DNA of 63,718 bases, filler included, from Folioceros fuciformis (GCA_049999805.1; 7 parts of 7 records of this genome joined end to end with filler, not necessarily neighbours in it), one strand, 5' to 3'. Shown: positions 6,545-57,290, counted from the first letter of the whole stretch. Program-made: numbers and translations. The notes: generated by a model not told the origin, from the sequence alone.

Positions 6545-6644
6545 NNNNNNNNNNNNNNNNNNNNNNNNNNNNNNNNNNNNNNNNNNNNTTAATTAATTAA
6601 NNNNNNNNNNNNNNNNNNNNNNNNNNNNNNNNNNNNNNNNNNNN
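6545..6644. other. Artificial contig-join linker (Ns + TTAATTAATTAA + Ns)
   Basis: Six-frame stop linker embedded in Ns; the same structure recurs six times in the window. Confidence 0.97.
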
Positions 6645-9600
6645 AGCAAGCAGTTAGCCTTAACAGAGAAAAGGCTTCTTATGTCCTGGAAATGGCGGAG
6701 CAGCAATTCTTGCTTGGTGAATTTGACGCAGCTCTCTGCTCTTACCGGTTTGTTGCAAATTTTGACACCAGGGTGACTGCTTGTGACTATGTATTCTGAT
6801 TTTCTCGTACATCTGAGTATGACGTCCATTTGCTATGTAGTAAAGACTTGTGATAGGGGCAATTTGCAGGTTAGCAAGTCAGATGAATTGTTTGGACCTC
6901 GAGGCTTCCTATGGAGTGGTCCAGTGTCTTCTGATACAAGAAGAAGTGAAGGAGGCTGAATTGCAACTACAGCTCATGGTTGAAATATCCGTCTCTATGG
7001 GCAGATCTTGTAGTCTGACCTACCTTCTTGCTCAGTTGAATTGGATAAGTGGTGAAGATGTGAAGGCATGTCTGGACCTGTTGGATGAAACCTTCAACTT
7101 ACACAAGCAGGTACGGACAAGGTGACTTTACGAAGTCCTTTCCGAGGCCGAGTCTTTGTGTTGGAACGCCTTGTGGCGCAAATGACAATGACCTATGGCT
7201 TGCAGGGTGTTCCTAAAAAGTTTGACTATGAATACTTCACGGATCTTAATATGGACAGGTTGTTTGGGATAGCTTATCTATACTTATCCCTATCAGGGGC
7301 CGCATCCCAGGAGGTGAAAACATATGCCTTGGGACAAGCTGCTCACGTACTTGAATACTTGAACAATGCAATTCCGAGTTCTGTGGGCGGCCATCTTATG
7401 CTAGCCCATGTGATGTTTAAACTGGGAAAGCTTGGGTCTACTTTGGACTCCCTTGAGTACCTCCTACGTTTGGACTCTTCGTGTGCATCCGGTCATTTGT
7501 TGCTAGCACAGGTTCCACCCTGCACAATTGTCGACTCTTCACAGTTTTTCCATCACGCATCCCTTTGAAATTATGTAAAGCATTTGCAGGTATATATGTG
7601 CGAAAATAAATACGAGCTGGCTAAGCAAAGTCTTGAAGAAGCTTTGAGTAATGATTTTGCAGTCCGCGATACGATAGATTATCTTGTAATTCATGCCAAA
7701 GTTCTTATGAGTACAATGGATTTTACTGCTGCCAAAAAGGTGCATGCACAATTGTTTGCATGATTATAATGCGATAGGATTTAATCAAATTATTAATATC
7801 AAACATTCATTTGATATGGTTGAAGACTTTGCTATCATGCTAAGTAAGATCTAATGAGACGTTGGACTAAATGAAGTGCAATATAATGAGGCAGGCACTA
7901 GAACATGCCTTGCTACTTTCAGAATCAGAAGTTAAAAGAGGTCAATTGATGTATTACAAATATCCTGGCACAATGAAGCATTTAAATATGATGGGTGATG
8001 ATACAGCTCACATTTTTATGCTCTTAATAGATCTTGACTTAAAATTTGGTATGATAGAAGAAGCAACAATGACAATCCAAAGGGCGAAACCCTTTTTTGA
8101 AGGAACTTCTGATAGAGTAATGAAAAATTTCATATTGAAGAATAAGTTGGGGCAAGGTTAATGAGTCAAAACTATTTGAATTTTAAGTCGGTATCTTTGT
8201 TTTAGGAGCAACTTTTATTAGCAACTTCTGATCTAGCAATGATACAAGCTAATATAAAAGGTGGGCTTCAAATACTTCAACAAGTTTCTAGCAATAGCAA
8301 CCATTACATCCAAGCAAGACTTATTATGGCAGAGATATATCTGAAATACCAAAATGATAAAGCTATGTTCATAAATTGTTACTTGGAGGTGGTTGATAAG
8401 TTTTACAATTCACAGGTTACTATGAGTTCTTTAATTCTTCACTTACTTGACTTAGCTGATGTTTAAAAAAATTTTATTATTTAATAAGATTTAATATGTG
8501 TAAAATAAATATGATTGTGACAATCAGATGTTAATATTATTGAGTGATGCTTTCATGAAAATTAATGCACCTGAACGAGCAATTCTTTCCTATCAAATAG
8601 CAATAGAACAAGGTTTGGAAGATCCATTATTAGCCACAAAGGTAGCAGTTGCCTTTGTATCCATGCATGAATACAAAAAAACCATTGTGCAGTATGAAGC
8701 AATTCTAAAGACTACTTCACATGGTTTTGTGAAATACGGAATACAATATGAATTATCAGGTAGGTTAGTGAAAGTCACATTCATGGCATACATACATTAT
8801 CCTTAGGCTCTATAGAATACAATCATTAACATAAGCTTGTTATCCAGATTTGCAAGTTGCATTAAAGAACTACGAGTATGCAAAAAACATATTAATCACG
8901 TTACTTAAAGAACTTGAATCTGAGTTCGAGTCCTCCAAGTTGGGGATGGTTGAGAGCCAAAAGTTCTTATCGTTATGTGTGAAATCATCTTTACTCCTTT
9001 TAAGAATAATAAATATGGAAGACCAAAACAAAGTTAGAGCAAATGTTTGTCGACTCTTTAATGAACTTCTATTCATTCATGATGTTTGATTCCTTGATAT
9101 CCCTAGCAAGGGCTTGTTTAGAATTTTGTAACATTCCTACAAGTAGATCTTTTTGAGTTTGATCATATCTAGACTTTGAATTGTAATAGGTTTCCTATGC
9201 TATGCAATTCCTCGACATGATTATTGAGAAATTAAGATTTCACATAAAATCTAGTTTACATAGTAGTACATATGCAAAGATCTGCGTTCAACTTTCACAG
9301 GTGGGAATGTTCTCACCTTTCTATAATTAACTCTTAATCATATCCATGTTCTGCTGCACATATGTAAAAGCATGATATAATCTTTTTAGGAATGTGAAGT
9401 GCAAAGTTACTTAGACAAAATTATTCTTTTACTTCACGAAGCCTTAAATTATAATCCCCAAGATGCAGAGCTCTCAATAGCACTTAGTAAAATTCATTTT
9501 GAAAGGTAAAAAAAAAAAAAGATTTCTTTATGTATAGTTAAATTAATTTATTGTGATGGTGTTTTTTTGGGGAAGTAAAGACATTTGAAGTCATCACTCA

Positions 9601-11095
9601 CTTGATTTGATAGGTCAGAAATTGTTGAAAGTGAAGGATGGTGCCTAAAAGCATTGAGTGCAAACCCTTTTGATGCAAAAGCAAAATTTATTCTTGCACA
9701 AGTCATGTTATCCAAAAGACAATATCAATGTGCTATTATGCACTTTAAGCAAATTCTTGAGACCCAACCAAATGATTATATCTCTCTCGCTCAGGTTCAT
9801 ATACTTTAATTATCACCGATTAAAGTTTTGATCACTCACTCAAACTACATAATGGAAAGAGAAAAACACTTGCAAACTAAAACATTTGTTGTATTCAGCT
9901 CGTGCAGTTGTATCGTAAAGTAGACCAATTGGAGAGTGTCCTACCATACTTAAACCGTACACATGGTTTATCATCAAAATCCCACACTCATACAGGGTTG
10001 CAATATTGTAGAGGACTCTATGCTCGATACTCAAACAATCCGTCTAAAGCTCTTCAGGTTTAAATGATTGTGTTATACAAGATATGGATGTTGTTTCAAG
10101 CATCAAAAGTACACTAAATTTGAACATGTTGATTGTTCATACTAGATACTTAATACATCTCGGAGTGATCCATATTGGGGAAAACATATTATTTATATGA
10201 TGATAGAGTTATATCTTAATATCGATGAATTTTTTAGTTGGGAACGGATCAATTCCAGGTGTAATTGGCAAAACCACACACAAGGCATAAAAGCTGCTTC
10301 AAGGCTATTAGTTGAGACCAGGTTTGTTTGTACATCTTAAGATCAAAAAAAGAGTATTCATCAAAAAATATATATATTCACTTCATCTTTTGTTGGATAG
10401 GAAAATTGGCCCTTATACCGCAAAGCAAATTGTTTTTGAGTGTTATACAAAGATGGCCACAGGTGTTAAGAAAGATGTAGAATATGCTCTAGGCCAATTA
10501 AATCTAATTAAAGACAACCACCTTGGTAATGTGTCTATTTTATTGGCCATGGCAATTGCCTTCAATTTGTTATCACAATCAGTTAAAGCCAAGAATCAAT
10601 TAAGACAAATTTTAAAACTTGAATATAAGTGGGAAGATGCTGATGATTTTGAACGTGCATGGTTGATGCTTGCTAGCCTCTACGTACAGGTACCTAGTCA
10701 TTTTTTGTTTTTTTTTTTAATATGAGCTTGCTCTGTATTAAAAACTTTTCTCTTGTTTGTTCTATAAATAGGCCCAAAAGTATGATTTAGCTGAAGAGTT
10801 ATGTACAAGGTGTCTAGAGTACAATGGATCTTGTGCTAGAGCTTTAAAGTACTTAGGACTCATCAAAGAGAAAATTTATGCTCATGCTGAATCTATTAAG
10901 TTTTATGGAAAATCGTTAAGATATTATAAAGGACTATCACCTATGGTTGGGTACCAGCTAGCATTTAATTATGTCAAAGATAGGCACATGATCCCTGCAA
11001 TTTCTATATGTAATAAGATAAGAAAGGCTTACTCAGGTCACCAAAAAATGAAACAAGAGCTCATTGACAAAGCACGTAGTCATATACGAGCTTGA
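6645..11095 (+). CDS. IFT139: Intraflagellar transport complex A protein IFT139 / TPR protein TTC21B (multi-exon, 5'-partial)
   Basis: TPR exons separated by short GT-AG introns. The C-terminus ERAWLMLASLYVQ|AQKYDLAEELCTRCLEYNGSCARA...GYQLAFNYVKDR...ELIDKARSHIRA* matches the TTC21 C-terminal signature. Stop TGA at 11093-11095. Confidence 0.92.
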
Positions 11096-18391: not shown

Positions 18392-18491
18392 NNNNNNNNN
18401 NNNNNNNNNNNNNNNNNNNNNNNNNNNNNNNNNNNTTAATTAATTAANNNNNNNNNNNNNNNNNNNNNNNNNNNNNNNNNNNNNNNNNNNN
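18392..18491. other. Artificial contig-join linker
   Basis: N-TTAATTAATTAA-N; truncates the HSA32-like gene. Confidence 0.97.
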
Positions 18492-31594: not shown

Positions 31595-31694
31595 NNNNNN
31601 NNNNNNNNNNNNNNNNNNNNNNNNNNNNNNNNNNNNNNTTAATTAATTAANNNNNNNNNNNNNNNNNNNNNNNNNNNNNNNNNNNNNNNNNNNN
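31595..31694. other. Artificial contig-join linker
   Basis: N-TTAATTAATTAA-N. Confidence 0.97.
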
Positions 31695-38006: not shown

Positions 38007-38106
38007 NNNNNNNNNNNNNNNNNNNNNNNNNNNNNNNNNNNNNNNNNNNNTTAATTAATTAANNNNNNNNNNNNNNNNNNNNNNNNNNNNNNNNNNNNNN
38101 NNNNNN
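38007..38106. other. Artificial contig-join linker
   Basis: N-TTAATTAATTAA-N. Confidence 0.97.
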
Positions 38107-38360
38107 GGGGGGGGGGGGTACGTATATAGACACCTGAGTGCCCCCGCACTACCAAGGGCCAAGGACACCCTCGCCCACACTTCTTCTTGGTCCTGTCACT
38201 CAATCCTATCAAATTACCAAGGGCCAAGGAGCCTTTTGGGTATAAATACCCAAGTATTATTTTCATACTAAGCCGCTTCACTCGCATCTTCACAAAAAAA
38301 AACACTATCTGTTCATTCTGTTCTTCAAAATGGGAGTCCCGAAAGTTTTTTCCTGTACAA

Positions 38361-38833
38361 TAGGCTACAATACTTAGTGGCCACCCCTCTATAGAGATGT
38401 CACCAATATACAAAATAGCTATAACATAGAGTGGCTACATACTCTCGACTTCCGTTTGTGGAGACATCACCATTCACATTAGCTACGACACAGAGTCTCT
38501 TCGTAAGACAAGACTAGTTGGGGGAAGAGTCTTGAGAAGAAACCTAAGAGCATGACATGCCTTTTAGGGTAGGGGTTGTATTTTAAGTTGTCACGAAGTG
38601 TTGTAGGGTTGGTAGCCACTAGAAGTTGTCACCGAGTGGTTTAGGGTTGGTAGCAACCAAAAGTTGTTGTGAAGTGTTTCAGGGTTTACAACCAATGGTA
38701 GTGGCTGCAGGGTTAGTGGAACCTTTAAGGGTGGCACCATTACGATACAGCCAAAAGTTACAGCAGACTTGTTGTTGATAACATCAATAAATCAGTGTGA
38801 TTGTATATATTATATGATCTTATACAATTACCA
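38361..38833. repeat. Direct repeat copy 1 (paired with 46375-46986)
   Basis: taggctacaatacttagt...gagacatcaccattcaca...gagtcttgagaagaaacctaa...cctttaagggtg...ttgtatatattatatgatcttatacaattacca is shared with copy 2. Confidence 0.88.
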
Positions 38834-38899
38834 AGGGCTTATAACAAGTCACATTTACTTGGAAGTAAACTGACCATACCGCCATTGTACGTAACTTAT

Positions 38900-40290
38900 C
38901 GCTGTTATGAACGATAGGTCTTGCACCAAAGAGATTAATGGAGACCCATTCTTTTGCTACGGCCTGCATGCGATTTTCAATCTCGAATTGTGTCAGAGAA
39001 GACTAGATGTAGATGATACATAGTCACCACCTTTTACTACCCTAAACGCTTGACGAGTGACTCTCAGGGTCAATTCTGGCTTGAGTATTATGATCTTGGG
39101 GGCTGCAGAAAGGTGTATATCTTCTCCATGCACCCAATTCTTGATACAAGTTAGGAGAACCCTGGAAGGGTCCTCAATTGTGTTGAATCTCATGAATATG
39201 GCTTTCCCATCACCAATCGTACCTTTCTTGCCCAAGGCCCACCTCCTCTGCGCTTCGAGGACGCACTAGATGTATCTCAAGGTTGCAACATTTTGCTGAC
39301 AATTATAATTTGTTCCCCCACCATGTCTATGACAATCCGGGGTGATTTTGGGATTTAGATACATGTAGTTCGGATTAGACAGATTGGTGAGCATGTATTG
39401 AGGCTATGCCCAAGCGTTGCATGTGAGTAACCGTCTCAATGTTGGTTTGCTAAAATGCCTATTCAACATCTTACTTATTGTATGTAAACAGGAACCGTGC
39501 TCTAAGGGCTAGCGTGCTACATAACTTAACAATGTCACATAGGGACATGACCTCCATACCGAAAGCAACTTTTACTCTCTTTGATTAGGCTTGAATTTGA
39601 AGACTTCATAGAAAAAAAGAGATGGAAGTTCCATCTACCCCGTGACAAGGGGAACAACTGGCAATGGGGAAAAGCCAAGAACGGGGGCCTAGCCCATCAC
39701 TTTTCACTCTTTGATTAGGCTAGGATTCGAGGCTATTTGCTGGAGATGAGGATACGTCGCTATATCTTGAAACTTGTCGGGACAGAGGGCAGGGTGAACC
39801 ATCACTAATGTTGTGCCCGCAGTTAGCTTCAACTTGCCACTCTTCCCGTTGCACTTCGATTCCATTTTTCTCCCAAGGTGCGCTTTCAAGGGCTGGAGCT
39901 TCACATGAACAACAAACTCATAAAATCATAGAAGTGACTTGAGCTCGGTATATCTTGGTGCGCGACTTGATGAAAGAAGTGAGATTCCGCATGTTGAGTA
40001 TACCCAAATCTCTAGCATGCTGATCTTCAATGCTGTTCACGTCCGCTAGTTCTAGCCTTTGAACTCATCCTTCCAAGATTCCACCATCATGTTTGGAGCA
40101 ACAATGAGCATCTTCTTGTGCGGACAGCTAGTGAGCAGCCTTTCACAAAGGCTATCATCATCAACTTTCTTCCTAGACCTTGTGCATGTCGCAGAATACA
40201 TCCTCTTCAGCCATTCAAAGACTTGACAAGGAATTGAAATCCTTTCACTTGATGTTTGTTCATCTTGGGCAGAAAGCTAGGAGAAATTAT
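38900..40290 (-). pseudogene. Degenerate CLSY/DRD1-type SNF2 chromatin-remodeler fragment, copy 1
   Basis: Minus-strand translation across frameshifts: PKMNKHQVKGFQFLVKSLNG*RGCILRHAQGLGRKLMMIAF (motif I), CPHKKMLIVAPNMMVESWKDEF (Ia), MRNLTSFI..ELKSL..FYEFVVHVKLQPL, TLVMVHPALCP, FNTIEDPSRVLL...GEDIHLSAAPKIIILKPE...VTRQAFRV (V/VI). Confidence 0.8.
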
Positions 40291-40896
40291 GAAGGTTTTG
40301 TATGAAATATCATTACTGTTCTTTGAGATCATTTTGCCCCTAATGTCCCTATTATGGTTTATCTCTCAGGGTAGGTGGGTTTTCCATCTTGTTTTTCAAT
40401 GAGTTTGAAGATATTTTATATCATGTATGCACATTCGATAAAATAAATTACTCCTCTCTCCTTGTATTGTTTGTTTTAAATATGCTATACTTTATGAGCG
40501 AATACACTTGTCTATCATATCTAAGTAATAGCATTGTTTTAATGATTTTATTACTTTGATCGAAATTTGAATATTGTTGAACACTATATATGTATGCATA
40601 GGTGCTTCAAAAATCACAGCTAGTTGCTGTAGTGATGTTGGCATAAACATCCTTTCCTTGAAGGGATTGGGCTGTATATCTTTGCAGCAAGGCATCATGG
40701 TGTCCCATGCAAGATCCAACTTGGTATATGTTGTTGTTGTTTTTTTTTTTTTTTTTTACATACTTTCCTAGATTGAGTTCAAATTTGTTTTGGAGTGAAA
40801 GTTCACAGTGATTTTTTTTTTTTTTTTGTATGAGATATATTCCACTCTTATAATTTTGTTTTTCTGACTTGTATAATTTCTTCTTCCCTTTGACAG

Positions 40897-41367
40897 ATGC
40901 AACATATACTCAACTTTCCAATGGATGTTCAAATCAAAATTGTGGAGAACTATATTGCAAACCATACCGATGGAACATGGCAGTGGGATCCTATGACAAA
41001 AAAAGCAACTACTGAATATAATGGTGGCACCAGCATAGTGGATCCCAACCTTCACCTCTTTTCTATCAATGCATGTTTGGAACTTGGTTTGGTTACTGAT
41101 GTTGAGATCTTACCAGCTCGACATAATTCAGGGGCATATTGTTGGTTATGTAGACAACCGAGGCGATTTCTTAGTGATGATTACTTCTATTATGATTCAA
41201 ATATACCTTGGGAGATGTTTTATGACGTAACTGCCAAAATTGACATGAATCTTGTGGGCACTTTAACATTGCCTGCCACACCTTGCATCTATTTTGAAGA
41301 TGAAGAGGGCAGGACAAGGGCAAGAGTGCCCAACATACATGTCCCTTCCTTATTTCCCACGCGATGA
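40897..41367 (+). CDS. Hypothetical 156-aa protein with an F-box-like N-terminus
   Basis: ATG follows a pyrimidine tract plus CAG acceptor; ILNFPMDVQIKIVENY resembles an F-box start; CWLC motif; no stops. Confidence 0.45.
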   Translation: MQHILNFPMDVQIKIVENYIANHTDGTWQWDPMTKKATTEYNGGTSIVDPNLHLFSINACLELGLVTDVEILPARHNSGAYCWLCRQPRRFLSDDYFYYDSNIPWEMFYDVTAKIDMNLVGTLTLPATPCIYFEDEEGRTRARVPNIHVPSLFPTR

Positions 41368-41781
41368 AGAGGGTAGGAGAAGGGCAAGTATTGGAGGATG
41401 TTGGACGACAGCACTAATGCGTCACATCAGAGTTAGGAAGGAGGGAGCCTTAGAGTAGGTGTCCCTAGTCCGGTGCTGTATCTCGAACTTTGGATCACCC
41501 CAAGGGGAGTCCGAAATGAAAATTGTGCAAGGATGCATATCAGGAGTTTGTTCCTAGAACCTTTGGCTTGGCTGCTTTTCTTTCTTTGTTACATCTCAGC
41601 GTTTTGGCCTTGTCTGCTAACTGTCCTCGGGTACTGCACTTGAAGCCTCTCCAGTATCTGCAGAAGCTTGTCCTAACAAGTTCCGTTCTTGGGTACTGCA
41701 CTTGAAGTCTCTACAGAGATTGCTCTAACAACTTGCCTGCATTGTAATTGCAATTGGGTACCGCAGTTGAAGCTCTCCAGC

Positions 41782-42142
41782 ATCTGCAGAAGCTTGTTCC
41801 AACAAGTTTATTTGCAGAAGCTTGTTCTAATAAGTTAATCTGCAGAAACTTGTTCTAACAAGTTTATCTGCAGAAGCTTGTTCTAACAAGTTTATCTGCA
41901 GAAGCTTGTTCTAACAAGNNNNNNNNNNNNNNNNNNNNNNNNNNNNNNNNNNNNNNNNNNNNNNNNNNNNNNNNNNNNNNNNNNNNNNNNNNNNNNNNNN
42001 NNNNNNNNNNNNNNNNNNTCTAACAAGCTTATCTGCAGAAGCTTGTTCTAACAAGCTTATCTGCAGAAGCTTGTTCTAACAAGCTTATCTGCAAAAGCTT
42101 GTTCCAACAAGTTTTTCTGCAGAAGCTTGTTCTAACAAGCTA
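41782..42142. repeat. 28-bp minisatellite ATCTGCAGAAGCTTGTTCTAACAAG(C/T)TT spanning an N gap
   Basis: About five copies on each side of the gap at 41919-42018. Confidence 0.93.
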
Positions 42143-43299
42143 TCGGTTCTGTTCTGTTCTTGGGTGCTGCACTCTAGGAATCTTCATTGTCTCTACAATG
42201 AGCATGACAGACCGAGACATGAGTGAGGCTCCTGTTGTCAGACAGTCTTTACAATCCCCGGCTACCGAAGCAGGTCGAAATCTCGAGATGCTTTTAAGGC
42301 TGCCTTGTTAGAGCCAAGCATAGAAGCCACAAGTTCTCCCAACGCAAGGGAAACGGGCTGCTGTCCTTACTAATCGGCTAGCTTCGCCCCATACTATGAG
42401 CCTGAGATCCGTGACAGACGGGTCTGACTCATTGATAGCAGTACTTCTGTCCCGCCAAATCTGAAGCCTCCTGCTTTGCATACCACCATCCCAGGGATGC
42501 ATGATTGGGCTACGGTAGCCCCAAGCCGCTAGGATCTGGTGATCGTCATCTCTGCCTGTTCTGTATCCCGCGCTATCCCAGGATGTCTGTCCTCGGATTC
42601 GAAGCACGTCCAAGTAACGTGCTTATGGCAAGCCACAATACTTAATTTAGGCCCTCCTGCTCAACTTGTTCATGCGGAACAAATGCCTCCATTCCAAGCT
42701 CTTGTTCGCCATGTCCCGTATTCAGCAATGTCCCCTGCACTACATCCTATCCTCCGTTAAGATAACTTCTCAAAATTTGTTGTGCACCTTCCATTTCACC
42801 ACCATAGATATCCACCAGGCACCTAGGTGGCCACAGCACGTCATCCAGCAATTTTCTTCTGGCATGTACAGCTCCCTGCCTTTTTGCCTTTCTCGAACGC
42901 ACAAAACGTAGCTCACACATCTCACGCTGTCCGTGTGACCCAGTTCAGAGGCTGACTTCAGCCTGCTACATACCAAAAGTTTCAGAGACGAAACGGGACT
43001 GTTGGAGAAATGTGTAGGGAGCACAGCCTCCGGCCCAGTACCGAACGTGTTCCGCCAAAATCTACAGCACACGATGCAATGGGACAGACTTCTTCAGCCG
43101 ACATCTGAAAATAAGTCTGAGTGCCATTCCAGAGACAGTCAGGTGAGCTCTGCTACACACTTCAAGCTTCCACAGTGTCAGGGAGTTGGTCTCAATCTCA
43201 GTGTAATGCCTATTACCTCCTCAGCTGGTACGAACCTCGGCCTTCATAGCTAGGGAGTTGGGCTGAGGTGAGGGCTGGAATTCGGTGACTCTGTTCCAC

Positions 43300-44075
43300 C
43301 CAAATTTACGGTTCAAGATGCCATTTGGCAGCCATGGCTCGAGCAGTAAGGGATACATCTTCTCCACAAGCACAGGTCATGATACAGTTTCGGAGAACCC
43401 TTGAAGGGTTTTCATTCTTATCGAATTTTTTTAAGCTGGCAGTAGTATCACCAACACAGAACGCCTTTCTGCCCCAAGGCCCAGCTCCTCTGCATTTGTA
43501 TGATGCTTTGAGGTTAGATATTCTGCTACGAAAAGCCATCATTTCTCTCGTCTTGTCACAATGAGACACAATCGCCATACCGAAATCAGGTTTCACACCT
43601 TGACTTGGATTCTATCTTATTTCGTGAGGATCAGGATACTCGGCTGTATCTTGAAATTCTTCGGGGCAGAGGGAAGACTGAACAGTCCCTAATGTCGTGC
43701 CTACGTTAAGCTTCAGCTTGCCATCTGTGCCGCTGTATTTATTAGTCTTGATTGTTTTCACAAGGTGCCTTTGCAAAGGCTGCAACTTCACATGACAACA
43801 AACGCAAAGTCCTGCAAGTAATTTTAGCTCTGTATCATCGTCGTGCGAGTTGATGAAGGAAGTCAGATTCCACGCGTTGAGTATACCTGCATACTTTTCT
43901 AACGTGCTCGTCTCCTAAACGAGCACTTGATTTCCAGGATTTCTTCCTTGCTGCAGCTTCCCGTCCCATCACCATTTCTTGTGTGGATCAGGCCGTTATT
44001 GTACCCGGTCGTAAATTTTCTACTTGTGCTCCTGCTGCATCCGCTTTTGCGCAAACTCTGGATGGTATAAAATAT
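43300..44075 (-). pseudogene. Degenerate CLSY/DRD1-type SNF2 fragment, copy 2
   Basis: IQSLRKSGC..., NLTSFINSH..ELKLLAGL..HVKLQPLQRHL, GTTLGTVQSSLCP, NPSQGVKPDFGMAIVSHCDK, FDKNENPSRVL..CACGEDVSLTA. Confidence 0.75.
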
Positions 44076-44179
44076 GGACTCTGTCCACATTCTTCGTTCC
44101 AGTGGCGCACTGGAAGAAGACATACCCACAATTTCGGAGATGGGTGATTTTTTGTCCACCTCTGTTGTCAACGATAGCA

Positions 44180-45070
44180 TAGCTCCTGTACCAAAGAGAT
44201 TGATGCCGACCCATTCTTTGGCTACTGCTTGGCTTCGATTTTCAATCTTGTTTGTTTTGGAGGCAACTACATGATCCGATCCACAGTCACCACTTCTGCT
44301 GCCCCAAATGAGAAACACTGCTCTCCCCACTTCTGCTTCCCCAAACGTAACGAGTGACGCTGGGGTCAAACTCTGGCTCCAGCGTTATGATCCTGGATGC
44401 TGACGTAGGTCTTATAATCTTCTCCATAAGCGCAGGAAAACCCTCGACCCGTGAGGAATGTTGTCAAGGTGGGTTTTCACAGCACCCATCAGAAGTTTGT
44501 AGTCCAAGCTTGGCCCAGCTCCTCTGCATTTCCAGACCGCGCTGTTGGATGTGTCTCAAAGGCTGCACCATTCTGTTGAAAATTGTTTGCTGTTCTCCAA
44601 TCTCCATAACGAAATCAGCTTCACACCTTGATTGGGATTCGAAGCTGTTTTTTGGAGCCAGATACTCAGCAGCTGAGGGAAGGGATGAACAGTCACTAAT
44701 GTTGTGCCCGCATAAGGCTTCAACTTGCTGCTTTTCCCGCTGCACTTGGACCCTATCTTTTCCACAAGGTGCGCTCGCAAAGGCCTGAACGACAAACTCA
44801 TAATATCATGGAAGTGACTTGAGCTCGGTAACCTCTTTGTGTGAGTCGATGAAAGAAGTGAGATTCCGCATGTTAGTATTCCTAAATCTCTAACATTCTG
44901 ATCTCTCGTGCTGTTCATCAAAGCACACTTCGACATCCATAAGCACACTTCCATTTCCAGAATTTGCCATGCCTGTGCCGCTTCTTGTGGGATCAATAGG
45001 CCATTAGCGCACGAGCTATCACTATTCTGCTTGTGCTCCAGCTCCATGAGCTTTTGCGCAAACTCTGAAT
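44180..45070 (-). pseudogene. Degenerate CLSY/DRD1-type SNF2 fragment, copy 3
   Basis: IQSLRKS, MRNLTSFIDSHKEVTELKSLP*YYEFVV, GTTLVTVHP, NPNQGVK, RIITLEPEFDPSVTR, HVVASKT.KIENRSQAVAKEWVGINLFG. Confidence 0.75.
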
Positions 45071-45260
45071 TGTGAGCTCGTGGATCACCACCTTCCCCTC
45101 CTGTCCCACACAAAAAGCCCCATTCACAGCATGAGGAGTGACGCCTAGTTTGAACTGTAGCTCCAACAATAGGATCTCGAAGGTGGCAGTATGGTCAACA
45201 TTTTCTGGCCAAGAGTTGATAGAGACCATGTCACCTCTCAAAGGATCTTTTTTGAAGAAG
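45071..45260 (-). pseudogene. C-terminal SNF2 helicase motif V/VI fragment (partial copy 4) fused to copy 3
   Basis: EILLLELQFKLGVTPHAVNGAFCVGQEGKVVIHEL resembles RV+LLDxxWNPxVxRQA+xRA+R+GQxxxVxxYxL and runs in frame into TIQSLRKS. Confidence 0.6.
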
Positions 45261-45675
45261 AATCTCCTTCTGAATCCCTTTACCATTAGTGATGCTATTA
45301 ACCTGGAATACTACCTCCTCCTTTCCTCCTTAACCTGTCTCGTATGGTTGACAATGTTTTGCCATTTACAACAAAAGCACCTGTAGCAAATATGGTCAGA
45401 AAATGTGGTCAGAAGGTTGAACTTAAAACTAACAATATATGGACGACCAAATGTCCAACACAAAGTAATCAATGGACACAAACTATACACAAGTTATTGC
45501 AACTTAGCAAACTACAACGCTTAATGTAGGTCACTTTTACCAACACATGAATGATAACACTTACTAAGATAATGATAAGATGCCAAATTACCTCATAGAG
45601 TAGCTAGAATATAGAGATTGCTCCAATACAAAGTTCCTTTGTGCAGGAGTGTTCCTTTGCGAAAAAGGCGTGCCT

Positions 45676-46460
45676 TTCTAGAGATGTCACCATTCTGTTT
45701 AACTACAACATAGACTGGCTATAACATGGGGGCATCCCTTTCCGCAGATGTCACTATACAATTTAACTACAACACAGAGTGGCTATAACATGGACTCCCA
45801 GCATTTCTTTGAGGCATCCCTTTCCAAAGATGTCACCATACAGTTTATAAGTTATGATATAGAGTGGTTATGATAGACACTCTTAGCATCCCTTTGTAGA
45901 GAAGTTACCATAGCTACAACACAGAGTGACTACACTCATAGCAACACTTAGCATCCCTTCGTAGAGAAGTTACCATAGTGGCTACACGACGCATCGTGGC
46001 TACAATACAGACTCTTGGTGGTTCTATATAGATATGACAGACACTTCTAGCATCCTTTTGTCGAGAAGTTAGCATAGCTACAACACAGAGTGACTAAAGT
46101 TAGCATAGCTACAACACAGAGTGGCTAAAGTTAGCATAGCTACAACACAGTGGCTACAAAACGAACTCTTAGCGGCTTTGTGTAGAAACGTCAACATTTG
46201 GATCAGCTACAAGACCTTGTGATGAGCCCCTTCGTACAGATGTCACCAATATACACAATAGCTACAATATCTAGCAAAAACCACCCTTTTGTAGAGAAGT
46301 TACCATAGCTACAACACAGAGTGGCTACAACACGGACTCTTGGTGAGTGCGTTGTAGAGACGCCAACATTTGGATAGGCTACAATACTTAGTTCACCACC
46401 CCTCTATAGAGATGTCAGCAAGATACTGAATAACTAAAATGTATAGTCACTACAACACAG
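45676..46460. repeat. Degenerate tandem array (~60-70-bp unit, core TAGCTACAACACAGAGTGGCTA)
   Basis: Recurrent agagatgtcacca / agagaagttacca...gctacaacacagagtgg...gcatccctt blocks. Confidence 0.85.
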
Positions 46461-46986
46461 ACTCTCATACTTCCGCCTGTGGAGACATCACCATTCACAC
46501 TAGTTACGACAGAGAGTCCCTTCGTAAGAGAAGACCAGTTGGAGGAAGAGTCTTGAGAAGAAACCTAAAGTATGACATGCCTTTTAGGGTAGGGTTGCCT
46601 TTTAAGTCATTCCGAAGTGTTGTAGGGTTAGTAGCCACCAGAAGTTGTCACTGAGTGTACTAGGGTTGGTAGCCATTGTGAAGTGTTTTAGGGTTTACAA
46701 CCATTGAAAGTTGCTGCAAAGTGTATCGATATTGGTGGTGGTGGCTATAGGGTTGGTCGAACCTTTAAGGGTGACACGATTTTGTGGTCGAGAAGTGTTT
46801 TAATTGTGTTTTAGAAATTCTTTTTTAATTAATCAAAATCTCTCTTTACATGCCTTTCATGACTTAGATTTGTTTTTTCACTAATAGATATTTTCCCATA
46901 CAATCCAAATGTATTGAGATATGAGGATGAAAAAAAGAAAATAGAAGGTGAGCTTGTATATATTATATGATCTTATACAATTACCA
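46375..46986. repeat. Direct repeat copy 2 (paired with 38361-38833)
   Basis: Same blocks in the same orientation; the segment at about 46780-46950 differs from the corresponding part of copy 1. Confidence 0.88.
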
Positions 46987-47896
46987 CTAATAAAATATCT
47001 TAGATGGAGGGAATCCGGCATTTGGAAGACGTGGTTGGATGAGACAATGCAGAATAAGCACCTGCAGTTTGGTGTGCACTCCTGCAGGATTGACAGCATC
47101 AGAGGATCCAGGTCGTCCTCATCCTGGGAATGCAGCAGGAGCAGTTGAAGTTCGGCGATGCTGCCATTGTGAGGCAGTGCCCACAACCCCCTCGTAAAAA
47201 AAACGGATGGTTACATGGAGGAAATCTTAAAGTGGTGCTGGAGAGACTTGAAGCTGCTCTGAGCCCAGCGTCTGCAGCCCTGTCCTGGCAACCCCTGCCC
47301 TGTTACCTCTAGTCAGGAAGCTGGGGTGATGGCTTCATCGAATGAAGGAGCCGCAGCTGCTCCACTGTGAGACCTCACCCTGCGAAGGAGCAGGTATCAC
47401 CACTCAGAGCATTCTAGACAAGAAGCAAGATGGCTACTTGCTCACGATTCTTCTCCCTCAGGACCCCGCGTCCGAAAATTCTTCTTACCAAATCCTCAAC
47501 TGTCGCAAATCCTGGCGAGGAAGGACACATGAATCACATACTTCCGATGCATCGTCACCAGTGACGGTAGAACCACAAGTTGTTCCCAAGGCATATAAAG
47601 CGGCTGACCTGAATACGTTAGGGCACCAGTAAGGTTGTTTCTGTTCGGTCGTTGTGGCGAACATCTCTGTTTCTTCCTTACGTCTGTAGACGGTCTCGCG
47701 AAGGCTAGGGTTCTTCAGGCGAGGTTAGGATCTGCACGGCGTGTCTGATGTTGCTTGCAGTGCGTTTTGACCTTGGTCTGGTCGGTCCATGGAGGCCCGG
47801 CGCCGATGTGTTTGATGTCATTTAGCGTCCCAAGGCCCTGTTTGATCGGTTGTGTGGATGTTTGTGCTAATTGTCGATCGTCTTGGCCATACGCAG

Positions 47897-48013
47897 ATGA
47901 TTGACGACCAAGATCTGGGGTTTTTGGCCAACTTCTTGGGGATCACCATCTTTGTGTTGGTGGTTGTCTATCACTATGTGGTGGCGGATCCCAAGTACGA
48001 AGGCGGCAACTAA
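47897..48013 (+). CDS. OST4: Oligosaccharyltransferase subunit 4 (38 aa)
   Basis: [41 protein letters not shown] directly after an intron acceptor (acgcag); below the ORF-track length cut-off. Confidence 0.93.
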
Positions 48014-49042
48014 TTTGAGGCACTATGTGTGCACGAAGAAGACAACGAACACCCTCCCACGCAATGGAGCTGTCGCTGGCGGCGGCGCAACTGAGGCTGA
48101 GGCTCGATTGCGCAAGCAAGGTTTCTAACATGGTGTAGCGACAAAGTTGTCAAAGATGTAGCTTGTTTTGTTTCCTCAGTACTGAATGGTGTTCTTATCA
48201 CCGAAATGCGCAGTGTATCCCGCAATTAGAAGCTAGCGCATTTTGGGAGTATATATTGTTCGGCGCTGTTTGGCAATTGCTGGTGTGTTCAGTAGGGCTG
48301 CCAGATCTACACCCTTACTCTCTGCGAATGAGTTAAGGTATCCGATCGGGCACATATCGATGCAGGTAACAGTTGAGTCATCACTGTCTTATGTTGGTGG
48401 CAGATGATGAATAACGTACTGCAACATGCTTTTCCATCGCAAGATGTCTGCTCTCCTAATCAGCCACAGGCCCCAGCGTCGTGTATGATATCCTTCGCTC
48501 CTGGAGATGTGTGTCATGGTGGATGAGGCTTTCTTGGTGCTGGAGATGTGTGTTGTTGTGGACGAAGCTTTCTTGGAGAGTGTCTATCCTCCTCAAAAGG
48601 ATGTCGTCATTTCACGTGCGGTTGTGCTTGTTGTGTGTGTGTTTGTACTTGTTGGCCGTGCGTCCCTGATGACAGCTCGTCCAAGCCCTTGGTGGATGAC
48701 GCAAAAGCATAGTTTATCGGAGTTGGCTTGGCTAGCCATGATGAACTCATTAGCATGTCTTTCGCTCCTGGCTGACACCAGGAAGGGACTGTTTTTCTCA
48801 CTTCGTGCTGAGGTAGGACTCACTGCAAGACCGGAAGTTAAGTGCGTGCAGAATTGTCCCAACGTGCACTGTGTGGTTTTCAATTCTAAATGTTTCATTC
48901 ACGTAGGACTGCGAAACGCACAATTGAATTCCCGCGCATAGGACTATGTCCGTCCCATGTTCACGCAAGGGTGAGAACAAAAATACAGGATCTCCTGCTT
49001 CCCAGAAATGCCAGCATGGGTGGAGAGGGATGAAGCGGCAGG

Positions 49043-50180
49043 TTAGCGAGGAAGGACGTCGAGAACAGTGTCACTCATGAGCACGTCGGTGTGGATGTTG
49101 GAGGTGTCGGAGCCTTGATCTTGGCTGCGATGGCGAGACGCCTTGGCCTTGGGAGCTGCCGCTGAAGCATCGACATCGGTGGACACTTCCCAGGCCAGCG
49201 TGCGCCATATATCGTCCAGGTCGCGGACCACCTCGAGAATGGAAGGCCGCTTGTCGGGATCGTCCTGGCAGCAGCTGATGGCGAGGCTCACCAGCGGCTG
49301 CAGCACCTCGGAGGAGTAGGCCCCCATGTGCGGATCCACAACATGCAGCACAGTGCCGGATTCGTACGCCATCTTCACCTCGCGCACGATGTTCTTGCCG
49401 TGGGAGATGGGATGCAGCCCGGTGATGAGCTCCAGCAACACCACCCCGAAGCTGTAGACATCGCTCTTGTCCGTGAGCTTGTGGGTGAGGAAGTACTCGG
49501 GGTCCAGGTACCCAGGCGTGCCCTTCACCACAGTGGATACGTACCCCGGGCCAGAGCCCTCCTGCTCCGGCGCTGGGGCCAGCTTAGAGAGCCCGAAGTC
49601 CGCTACCTTGGCATTCCGCTTCTGGTCCAGCAGGATGTTGGTGGCCTTGATGTCCCGGTGGAAGATGGGCGGGTTGGCCTCGTTGTGCAGGTAGGCGATC
49701 CCCTTGGCGCTCCCCAGGGCAATCCGGAGCCGCGCCACCATATCCAGCCCTGACTCCGAGCCCGCGGACAGATTCTCCCGCAACGTCCCGCCCTCCATGT
49801 ACTCGTACACCAGCATCTGCTCCCCCTGGTCATGGCAGTATCCCACCAGCTTCACCAGGTTCCGGTGATGCACCCGTGACAGCAGCTCGATCTCGGTGTA
49901 GAACTCCCGGCTTCCCTGCAAACTCCCCTCCTGCGCGCGCTTGATGGCCACCTGCCCCTCCACCGCCAGATCCCCGTGGTACACCTTCCCGTAGCCTCCC
50001 CGCCCGATGGCCCGATTGTCGCTGAATCCCTCCGTGGCGTCGCTCAGCTCCTGGAACGTGAACTCCTTCACGCCCGTGATGTGCACGTTGCTGCGGTCGG
50101 CGGTCAGCAGGCCGCGCCTGGCGGTCGACACACCTTTGCCTTCCCCTTTCCTCCTCCTCCTCACGTACCAGGCCCCGGCC
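49043..50180 (-). CDS. Receptor-like kinase cytoplasmic part (LRR-VIII-1-like), 5'-partial
   Basis: Basic stop-transfer [99 protein letters not shown]-terminal VLPR. Confidence 0.93.
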
Positions 50181-50280
50181 NNNNNNNNNNNNNNNNNNNN
50201 NNNNNNNNNNNNNNNNNNNNNNNNTTAATTAATTAANNNNNNNNNNNNNNNNNNNNNNNNNNNNNNNNNNNNNNNNNNNN
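50181..50280. other. Artificial contig-join linker
   Basis: N-TTAATTAATTAA-N; truncates the receptor kinase gene. Confidence 0.97.
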
Positions 50281-57190: not shown

Positions 57191-57290
57191 NNNNNNNNNN
57201 NNNNNNNNNNNNNNNNNNNNNNNNNNNNNNNNNNTTAATTAATTAANNNNNNNNNNNNNNNNNNNNNNNNNNNNNNNNNNNNNNNNNNNN
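57191..57290. other. Artificial contig-join linker
   Basis: N-TTAATTAATTAA-N. Confidence 0.97.

Follow-up and report, generated by a model that had tools for sequence, protein, structure and literature searches.

In a 63,718-nucleotide stretch of DNA from Folioceros fuciformis (GCA_049999805.1), hereafter called the window, we identified an array of decayed minus-strand copies of a SNF2 helicase gene at about 38.9-45.3 kb, and our comparisons support its derivation from a gene of the DRD1 type. Such an array had been described there by a model that was given the DNA alone (hereafter, the sequence-only reading), and it is real. We regard the cluster as a set of old, non-functional duplicates, made at the DNA level, of the helicase-encoding part of a DRD1-type gene, and we give this reading a probability of roughly 0.7. 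DRD1 is the SNF2 remodeler needed for the association of Pol V with DNA in RNA-directed DNA methylation (RdDM), and CLSY1-4 (CLASSY), its sister group, are the SNF2 remodelers that recruit Pol IV.

Organization of the array

Protein positions are given on a profile built from 17 CHR35-type sequences and comprising 896 positions, in which motif Q lies at 361, I at 389, Ia at 414, II at 503, III at 531, IV at 723, V at 786 and VI at 810. CHR35 is an Arabidopsis name that we take to be equivalent to DRD1. The array contains the following features.

38914-40428, minus strand: copy 1, the longest helicase-region pseudogene, covering profile positions ~304-429 and 635-812 and a C-terminal tail, without motifs II and III
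40058-40287, minus strand: Q/I/Ia block of copy 1 with a Walker A remnant, one stop and one frameshift (68.3 bits, profile positions 351-429)
39992-40057, minus strand: deletion junction of copy 1, 22 codons from motif Ia to MRNLTSF
39047-39190, minus strand: motif V/VI (helicase C) remnant of copy 1 (32.4 bits, profile positions 768-812)
~43150-44066, minus strand: unit 2, the most decayed, with an approximate low-coordinate end and the II-III junction as in copy 1
44179-45073, minus strand: unit 3, head to tail with unit 2, with the II-III junction as in copy 1
45074-45310, minus strand: stub 4, a motif V-VI fragment that abuts the start of unit 3 (26.3 bits, profile positions 781-830)

The three longer copies and the C-terminal stub that the sequence-only reading had described are borne out by DNA similarity and by their coordinates, with stops and frameshifts throughout. 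Copy 1 aligned with unit 3 at 78% identity over 256 nt (E 2e-55) and 75% over 133 nt, and with unit 2 at 73% over 314 nt (E 2e-41) and 71% over 151 nt. The DNA comparison also agreed with the proposed head-to-tail order of copies 4, 3 and 2, in which units 3 and 2 are 66% identical over 514 nt and their starts are spaced by a period of 1007 bp. Copy 1 is located 3.9 kb from units 4, 3 and 2, beyond a 100-N scaffold gap at 41919-42018 that separates it from them and qualifies their adjacency. A family of direct repeats (D10) links the stub (45134-45186), unit 3 (44350-44402) and copy 1 (39053-39105).

Each unit begins within the coding region. The stub is without the ~220-bp C-terminal tail present in unit 3, and its joint with unit 3 lies ~61 bp past motif VI, whereas ~284 bp separate motif VI of unit 3 from the start of unit 2. 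Because these two joints differ, the array is not perfectly regular. The string DPSVT at ~42.4 kb was considered as a possible fifth unit and was rejected as a chance occurrence, having no DNA or protein similarity to the units.

All of the peptide strings quoted in the sequence-only reading appeared when the minus strand was translated in three frames, with the frame shifting along the strand; HQVKGFQFL, GCILRHAQGLG and MLIVAPNMMVESWKDEF are found in copy 1. The LRNLTSFI/FYEFVV, VHP, NPxQGVK and motif V/VI segments said to recur across the copies are present as variants. MRNLTSFI occurs in copy 1 and unit 3 and AWNLTSFI in unit 2; FYEFVV and VHPAL in copy 1 correspond to YYEFVV and VHPFP in unit 3; and NPNQRVK, NPSQGVK and NPNQGVK are found in copy 1, unit 2 and unit 3, respectively. 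A motif V/VI remnant is retained in copy 1, unit 3 and the stub, while unit 2 keeps a motif V remnant only.

Assignment to the DRD1 type

Copy 1 produced a collinear chain of seven blocks in profile order, with a total of 104.9 bits, when the DRD1 profile was compared with the DNA in a frameshift-aware manner; 82 control pieces gave a maximum of 32.5 and a mean of 21.2. The corresponding chains scored 41.4 bits for unit 3, 32.0 for the stub and 31.9 for unit 2. Copy 1 and unit 3 are thus independently supported at the protein level, since their chains exceed the null maximum; the chains of unit 2 and the stub fall below it, and these two are recognized by collinearity and by homology to copy 1 at the DNA level. 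The whole window was also scanned on both strands in 3.5-kb pieces with a frameshift-aware profile. The top 4 of 76 local alignments all fell in the array on the minus strand (68.3, 32.4, 26.5 and 26.3 bits; the block of 26.5 bits is motif VI of unit 3), and the 67 alignments outside 38-46 kb had a maximum of 23.6 bits, a mean of 17.2 and a standard deviation of 2.1. Unit 2 scored 20.3 bits against profile positions 700-806.

Several further comparisons recovered parts of the same signal. Using hmmsearch on six-frame translations, 40428-40141 matched profile positions 304-401 (31.9 bits), and in tblastn searches a legume CHR35 open reading frame (ORF) matched copy 1 at 47% identity (E 1.6e-7) and residues 352-531 of the CLSY-like ORF L009 matched unit 2 (E 0.009). 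PF00176 matched copy 1 over positions 1-41 in one frame (E 8e-5, 22.3 bits, gathering score 24.9) and over positions 52-71 (E 0.093). The SNF2 ATPase family corresponds to PF00176 together with PF00271, and its N-lobe motifs Q, I and Ia stand in order in copy 1 only. The best PDB matches of its Q/I block were all SNF2 proteins, with ATRX first (E 0.1), and 28 of the 30 ESM Atlas feature-search matches of its V/VI remnant belonged to the Helicase_C set (best score 0.95). For helicase C motifs IV, V and VI, the profile gave 32.4, 26.5 and 26.3 bits against the null maximum of 23.6, and Pfam and PDB sequence searches were blank; we regard these segments as recognizable remnants in which key residues are mutated.

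Ordinary single-frame searches fail because the fragments are too decayed. Pfam returned only one match (E 0.093) for 11 single-frame ORFs, and nothing relevant was found in the PDB by phmmer with the motif V-VI ORF and the 203-amino-acid frame of unit 2, or with a profile of four C-terminal pieces (A1). A word-indexed homolog search with P0001 and A1 gave no matches, and when 1.84 billion representatives were searched exhaustively by HMMER with P0001, the single match was a spurious repeat protein.

Reference sequences for the placement within SNF2 were gathered by scanning metagenome contigs with a degenerate motif VI pattern, which yielded 117 loci. The plant-like ORFs among them were of two kinds. 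The first is represented by L049 (618 amino acids), whose relatives, up to 100% identical, are named CHROMATIN REMODELING 35 and come from legumes and other angiosperms (in the best 120 of 764 proteins with E<=1e-10 among 8000 candidates). The second (L009, L010, L062 and L067; 641-669 amino acids) is termed CLSY-like from sequence motifs alone. BLOSUM62 local scores of the N block were 150-162 against CHR35-type sequences, 110-125 against CLSY-like sequences and at most 98 against other SNF2 ORFs, and CHR35-type sequences again ranked first in the three C-terminal blocks, with smaller margins. All four significant blocks are thus nearer to DRD1 than to CLSY or other SNF2 sequences in a reference set that consisted of angiosperm CHR35 proteins (P0089, a CHR35 protein, was counted as DRD1-type), 4-6 CLSY-like ORFs and mostly bacterial metagenome SNF2 ORFs, and was without plant ATRX, RAD54 and CHR34 and without DRD1 of non-seed plants. 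The path of the stitched blocks was fitted to the DRD1 profile, which introduces some bias toward DRD1. The CLSY/DRD1-type origin advanced in the sequence-only reading agrees with the frameshift-aware comparison, in which DRD1-type sequences ranked above CLSY-like ones and these above other SNF2 sequences in all blocks, and the ranking supports derivation of the fragments from a gene of this clade, specifically of the DRD1 (CHR35) type.

A shared internal deletion

In copy 1, 22 codons separate the end of motif Ia (WKDEFK, 40058) from the beginning of MRNLTSF (39992). The sequence-only reading had put this gap at roughly 15-20 codons. Because the residues flanking the junction map to profile positions ~430-440 and 604-623, the deletion spans about 163 profile positions (441-603), and DEGH of motif II and SGT of motif III are lost with them. 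An alignment of the DNA of the three longer copies (A2) runs through the junction with matching lengths and with strong identity from just upstream of MRNLTSF, and no copy has extra material there. When profile positions 435-610 were searched against both strands of 38107-46000, the best score was 18.4 against a null maximum of 21.3, giving no remnant of motif II or III; motif II (Walker B) and motif III of the SNF2 ATPase family were thus not found in the array. EGGDPRAHNSEF at 45095-45017, which has a motif II-like context, was rejected as a candidate because its score of 18.4 is within the null.

The identical loss of the Walker B and motif III block in the three longer copies had been claimed from the sequence, and aligning the copies had been proposed as a check; the alignment and the null search agree with the claim and reveal a single common junction. 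Since this junction is common to the three long copies, one template that was already deleted gave rise to all of them, again as the sequence-only reading had suggested. Units 2 and 3 share a further gap of 14 bp in the MLIVAP codons. From the Q region to the PHKK anchor they are ~80 nt shorter than copy 1 and Walker A is not recognizable, in a part where their alignment with copy 1 upstream of the anchor is ambiguous.

Transposon cargo or segmental duplicates

The sequence-only reading had also proposed that the deleted template was amplified as transposon cargo. A deleted DRD1 fragment would then have been carried by a non-autonomous DNA transposon or a Helitron-type element, and the array would consist of nested or tandem insertions. 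One deletion common to all copies is what a single captured template would be expected to leave, and a pair of direct repeats flanks the cluster.

38355-38833, no strand assigned: left copy of the flanking direct repeat, low-copy, with its partner at 46370-46986
46370-46986, no strand assigned: right copy of the flanking direct repeat, adjoining a satellite-like array at 45667-46500

Depths and joints were taken from Logan contigs of runs X1 and X2 (DNA) and X3, and the findings are those among the contig pieces listed (24 of 808). The summed DNA depth of units 2 and 3 (18-25, compared with ~8.8 in the single-copy flank) and differently arranged related copies elsewhere, seen as contig joints, would also suit a transposon.

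However, the element termini expected of transposon cargo were not found. No terminal inverted repeats were detected in 38107-50180, where only two weak pairs of 26-30 nt (73%) were seen. Six-frame Pfam searches of 40400-43304 and 45300-49000 matched only Ost4 and, below threshold, AZUL, and revealed no transposase, helicase-Rep or other transposon protein. No ORFs of long terminal repeat (LTR) retrotransposons occur between the arms of the flanking repeat; the primer-binding site and polypurine tract were not looked for. DNA contig depth over the units was 10.6-25.5 against 8.76 in the single-copy Ost4 region (1.2-3x), far below the depths of 227 and 369 reached by genuine repeats of the same scaffold. 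Moreover, the units abut head to tail with the 1007-bp period and no element ends between them, and a divergence of 22-34% between copies implies that any activity would be ancient. The flanking direct repeat is ~480-620 bp long and satellite-like, with internal units of 31, 38 and 64 bp, and low depths (15-20) were seen in the flanking bins, apart from a separate high-copy element at 38107-38351. With no terminal inverted repeats, no transposon proteins and low copy depth, transposon cargo appears unlikely, and a few segmental duplicates fit the data better than an amplified element does.

Decay, frames and later insertions

Every unit carries stops and frameshifts in its homologous frame, and Walker A is destroyed in copy 1. 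The ratio of observed to expected CpG is 0.49-0.67 in the units compared with 0.80 in a neighboring kinase coding sequence (CDS). ORFs of 161 and 212 amino acids overlap units 2 and 3 and could be taken to mean that one or more units encode a truncated, ATPase-dead DRD1-like protein acting as a dominant-negative decoy. These ORFs, however, mix several ancestral frames and follow the DRD1 frame in short parts only, no unit can be read in its homologous frame without frameshifts or stops, and the Walker A lost from copy 1 is unrecognizable in units 2 and 3. The frame analysis largely refutes such a protein, which we consider extremely improbable. Judged from their frames, the copies encode no protein.

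Copy 1 further contains an insertion that is absent from units 2 and 3.

39592-39698, minus strand: high-copy short repeat insertion in copy 1, ~107 nt, with a ~23-nt direct duplication at 39699-39721 and 39568-39591

The ~23-nt duplication around the insertion includes the GVK codons. The bin 39316-39718 has a summed DNA depth of 227.6 and many loose contig ends occur at 39612-39695, and for these reasons we identify the insertion as a high-copy short repeat, which may be an element like a short interspersed nuclear element (SINE). A further ~195 nt of copy 1 (about 39335-39530) is missing from units 2 and 3. Other genomic copies of the ~107-nt repeat are preceded by (GAAA)n on the plus strand.

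An expressed paralog and possible transcripts of the array

We treated run X3 as RNA on the basis of a splice joint, its label being a guess. A GT..AG joint, 47721>47895 (intron 47722-47894), just upstream of Ost4 is present in X3 only, at a depth of 260, so X3 behaves as RNA. Neighboring genes reach depths of 150-800 in X3, and the stretches without X3 cover (38107-39315, 40525-41330 and 46570-46972) were not counted as evidence.

A paralogous contig aligned on 40061-40276 and carried 27 substitutions and 3 single-base indels relative to the window (~86% identity), with depths of 125.8 in X3, 12.8 in X1 and 10 in X2. Applying the listed differences to the window produced one open frame of 72 codons, free of the stop and the frameshift seen in copy 1 and with a Walker A of the canonical GxGKT form. 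This putative parental frame scored 195-204 against CHR35-type sequences (9 of 9), 147-161 against CLSY-like sequences (4 of 4) and at most 104 against others, and 36 of 71 residues are identical to legume DRD1. The contig likely represents a live, expressed DRD1-type parent elsewhere in the genome, here glimpsed as a contig of 216 nt.

Within the array, two X3 contigs match the window exactly.

43662-44699, no strand assigned: exact 1038-nt X3 contig, depth 9.4
42281-42756, no strand assigned: second exact X3 contig, depth 7

These contigs, which give neither strand nor transcript ends, are a weak hint of low-level transcription, with DNA carry-over or read-through as alternatives. The sequence-only reading had suggested that the copies could be sources of small interfering RNA (siRNA) against the host remodeler or relics of a decoy. 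In that case, the array would be a regulatory RNA locus whose transcripts or small RNAs act on the parental DRD1 mRNA, in the way that miR820 acts on OsDRM2. The two exact contigs would be consistent with such a locus, as would the membership of the source gene in the RdDM pathway (PMC11194755) and the precedent of a transposon-derived small RNA directed against a silencing gene (PMC3459959). As described in the latter article, rice miR820 lies inside CACTA transposons and targets OsDRM2. However, the units all point the same way, and none takes part in an inverted repeat or hairpin. Rfam found no microRNA or other RNA family in the array, its only match being a small nucleolar RNA (snoRNA) outside it, and a tRNA search found none. 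Even the best-conserved block matches the expressed paralog at only ~86% identity, and the listed differences leave at most one identical run of ~24 nt. RNA depth is ~3% of that of neighboring genes and could reflect read-through or DNA carry-over. We consider a regulatory RNA locus highly improbable. More generally, the direct orientation, the lack of a hairpin and the 22-34% divergence make an siRNA or decoy role of the array unlikely. A bolder proposal, that an ATPase-dead DRD1 fragment was mobilized once, or is still being spread segmentally, and that its transcripts feed small RNAs damping the host Pol V remodeler, would have a slightly slimmer chance still; if true, it would make the array a non-seed-plant counterpart of transposon-borne miR820 acting against OsDRM2.

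Origin of the array

For a cluster of old DNA-level duplicates, the reading that we prefer, we infer the following order of events. A genomic fragment starting at about profile position 304, which is approximately the start of the large last ORF in the legume DRD1 locus, would have been copied to this site. The stretch from motif Ia to the LREMTSKV-like segment would then have lost about 163 codons, and with them Walker B (motif II, DEGH) and motif III. The deleted copy would subsequently have been duplicated locally, by unequal crossing-over or segmental duplication, to give at least three units and the stub. Independent decay may have followed, with stops, frameshifts, the 14-bp loss common to units 2 and 3, the loss of the tail of the stub and the repeat insertion in copy 1. 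The array would probably be without function, any transcripts would be low-level by-products at most, and the live, expressed parent would reside elsewhere.

Several observations weigh against this account. The contig joints 43092>43833, 43400>39180, 43240>45098 and 42707>43158 show that rearranged relatives of the units exist elsewhere in the genome, so that duplication was not purely local and some mobility is possible. The sequence-only reading had reasoned that a single locus genome-wide would indicate ordinary local pseudogenization, and the joints show that this locus is not the only one. The direct repeat that brackets the cluster, with 83-85% identity, could mark a larger element. Although derived deletions are common to units 2 and 3, the identity of unit 3 is higher with copy 1 (78%) than with unit 2 (66%). 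The duplication history was not simple. The exact X3 contigs at 43662-44699 and 42281-42756 leave room for a transcript with a role. Finally, the putative parental block was assumed to be identical to the window beyond 40100-40222.

The sequence-only reading had described the fragments as intronless. In the reference DRD1 and CLSY-like loci the whole helicase region likewise lies in one ORF of 618-669 amino acids, and the description is therefore uninformative, as intron loss cannot be judged from it.

Genomic setting

The window is a concatenation of separate scaffolds, and genes on the two sides of a linker are not necessarily neighbors. Linkers of the form N44-TTAATTAATTAA-N44 lie at 6545-6644, 18392-18491, 31595-31694, 38007-38106, 50181-50280 and 57191-57290, and the other 100-N runs in the window are assembly gaps distinct from them. 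The scaffold of the DRD1-type array extends over 38107-50180 and has a single internal 100-N gap, that at 41919-42018. The gap is surrounded, at 41640-42170, by a partly palindromic tandem repeat of 28-bp units, whose 175-nt arms are 73% complementary and which is probably the reason for the assembly break.

On the left side of the array, a very high-copy repeat occupies 38107-38351 (summed DNA depth 369 compared with ~9 for single-copy sequence) and stops immediately ahead of the left flanking repeat. The interval from copy 1 to the gap includes, at 40894-41367 on the plus strand, a stop-to-stop ORF of 157 amino acids, in AT-rich sequence and without a Pfam match. On the right side, 45667-46500 holds diverged units of 31, 64 and ~170 bp that form a satellite-like array and are related to the repeat at 38355-38833. 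Beyond it lie the CDS of Ost4 (oligosaccharyltransferase subunit 4) at 47897-47995 on the plus strand, within 47488-47995, and, downstream of Ost4, a C/D-box snoRNA (Rfam snR60/Z15, 44.2 bits) at 48687-48783 on the plus strand.

Copia-type ORFs and a SOUL protein are also present in the window, as are two TTC21/IFT139 exons and, on the minus strand at 49043-50179, a plant receptor-like kinase. These intraflagellar transport exons, at 7089-7568 and 10312-10725 on the plus strand (Pfam E 2.7e-13 and 1.2e-22), suggest a plant with flagellate sperm or cells.

Comparison with known systems

In PMC11194755, DRD1, CHR34 and CLSY1-4 are placed in one small SNF2 subclade with RAD54 and ATRX as the next closest groups, and bryophytes are reported to have one CLSY and one DRD1, with DRD1 being single-copy in most vascular plants as well. 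Against this background of a gene reported as single-copy in bryophytes and most vascular plants, a cluster of its pseudogenes is a small curiosity for RdDM evolution. A full-text literature search, judged from titles and the openings of abstracts, gave no account of such a DRD1 array among the 10 of 61 matching papers listed. For genome annotation, there is a risk that such fragments are miscalled as extra CLSY or DRD1 members or as truncated "novel" remodelers. The practical gain is a negative one, as the sequence lends no backing to the idea of a transposon-borne anti-silencing decoy. In addition, the locus offers a worked example of how a live parent gene can be found from a single expressed paralogous contig.

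Among known systems, the array resembles DRD1 in giving its best similarity to that family in all four significant blocks and in the parental block, in the collinear order of Q-I-Ia, LREMTSKV-like, LPGLxDFTVV-like, GVK, IV, V and VI segments, and in an SVTRQA-type motif VI context, which is found in DRD1-type sequences and in 0 of 6 CLSY-like references. It differs from DRD1 in that its copies are without motifs II and III and without the N-terminal half (profile positions 1-300), have a mutated or lost Walker A, carry stops and frameshifts throughout and are tandemly repeated. Taken by these features, the array is a derivative of the DRD1 family and no working member of it. CLSY1-4 belong to the same clade, the CLSY-like references have the helicase region in one long ORF, and CLSY-like sequences gave partial tblastn matches to copies 1 and 2; their scores, however, are lower than those of DRD1-type sequences in both the N block (110-125 vs 150-162) and the parental block (147-161 vs 195-204).

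Pack-MULE, Helitron and CACTA elements capture fragments of host genes. The array is similar to such captures in comprising part of a host gene without its ends and in having relatives at more than one locus, but it differs in its low copy number and in having no detected element termini, target-site duplications or element proteins. The nearest conceptual precedent is miR820, a repeat-borne sequence directed against a component of host de novo methylation. For miR820, a hairpin precursor and co-evolving pairing have been demonstrated (PMC3459959), whereas the array shows no hairpin or transposon context.

In the array, as in clusters of non-processed pseudogenes that arise by segmental or tandem duplication, units stand head to tail, carry an ancestral lesion in common, have decayed independently and have later received repeat insertions. 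There is no essential difference from such clusters, and the special point here is that the source gene is a component of RdDM. The array is best read as ordinary duplicated dead genes, old and locally duplicated, whose live parent resides elsewhere in the genome.

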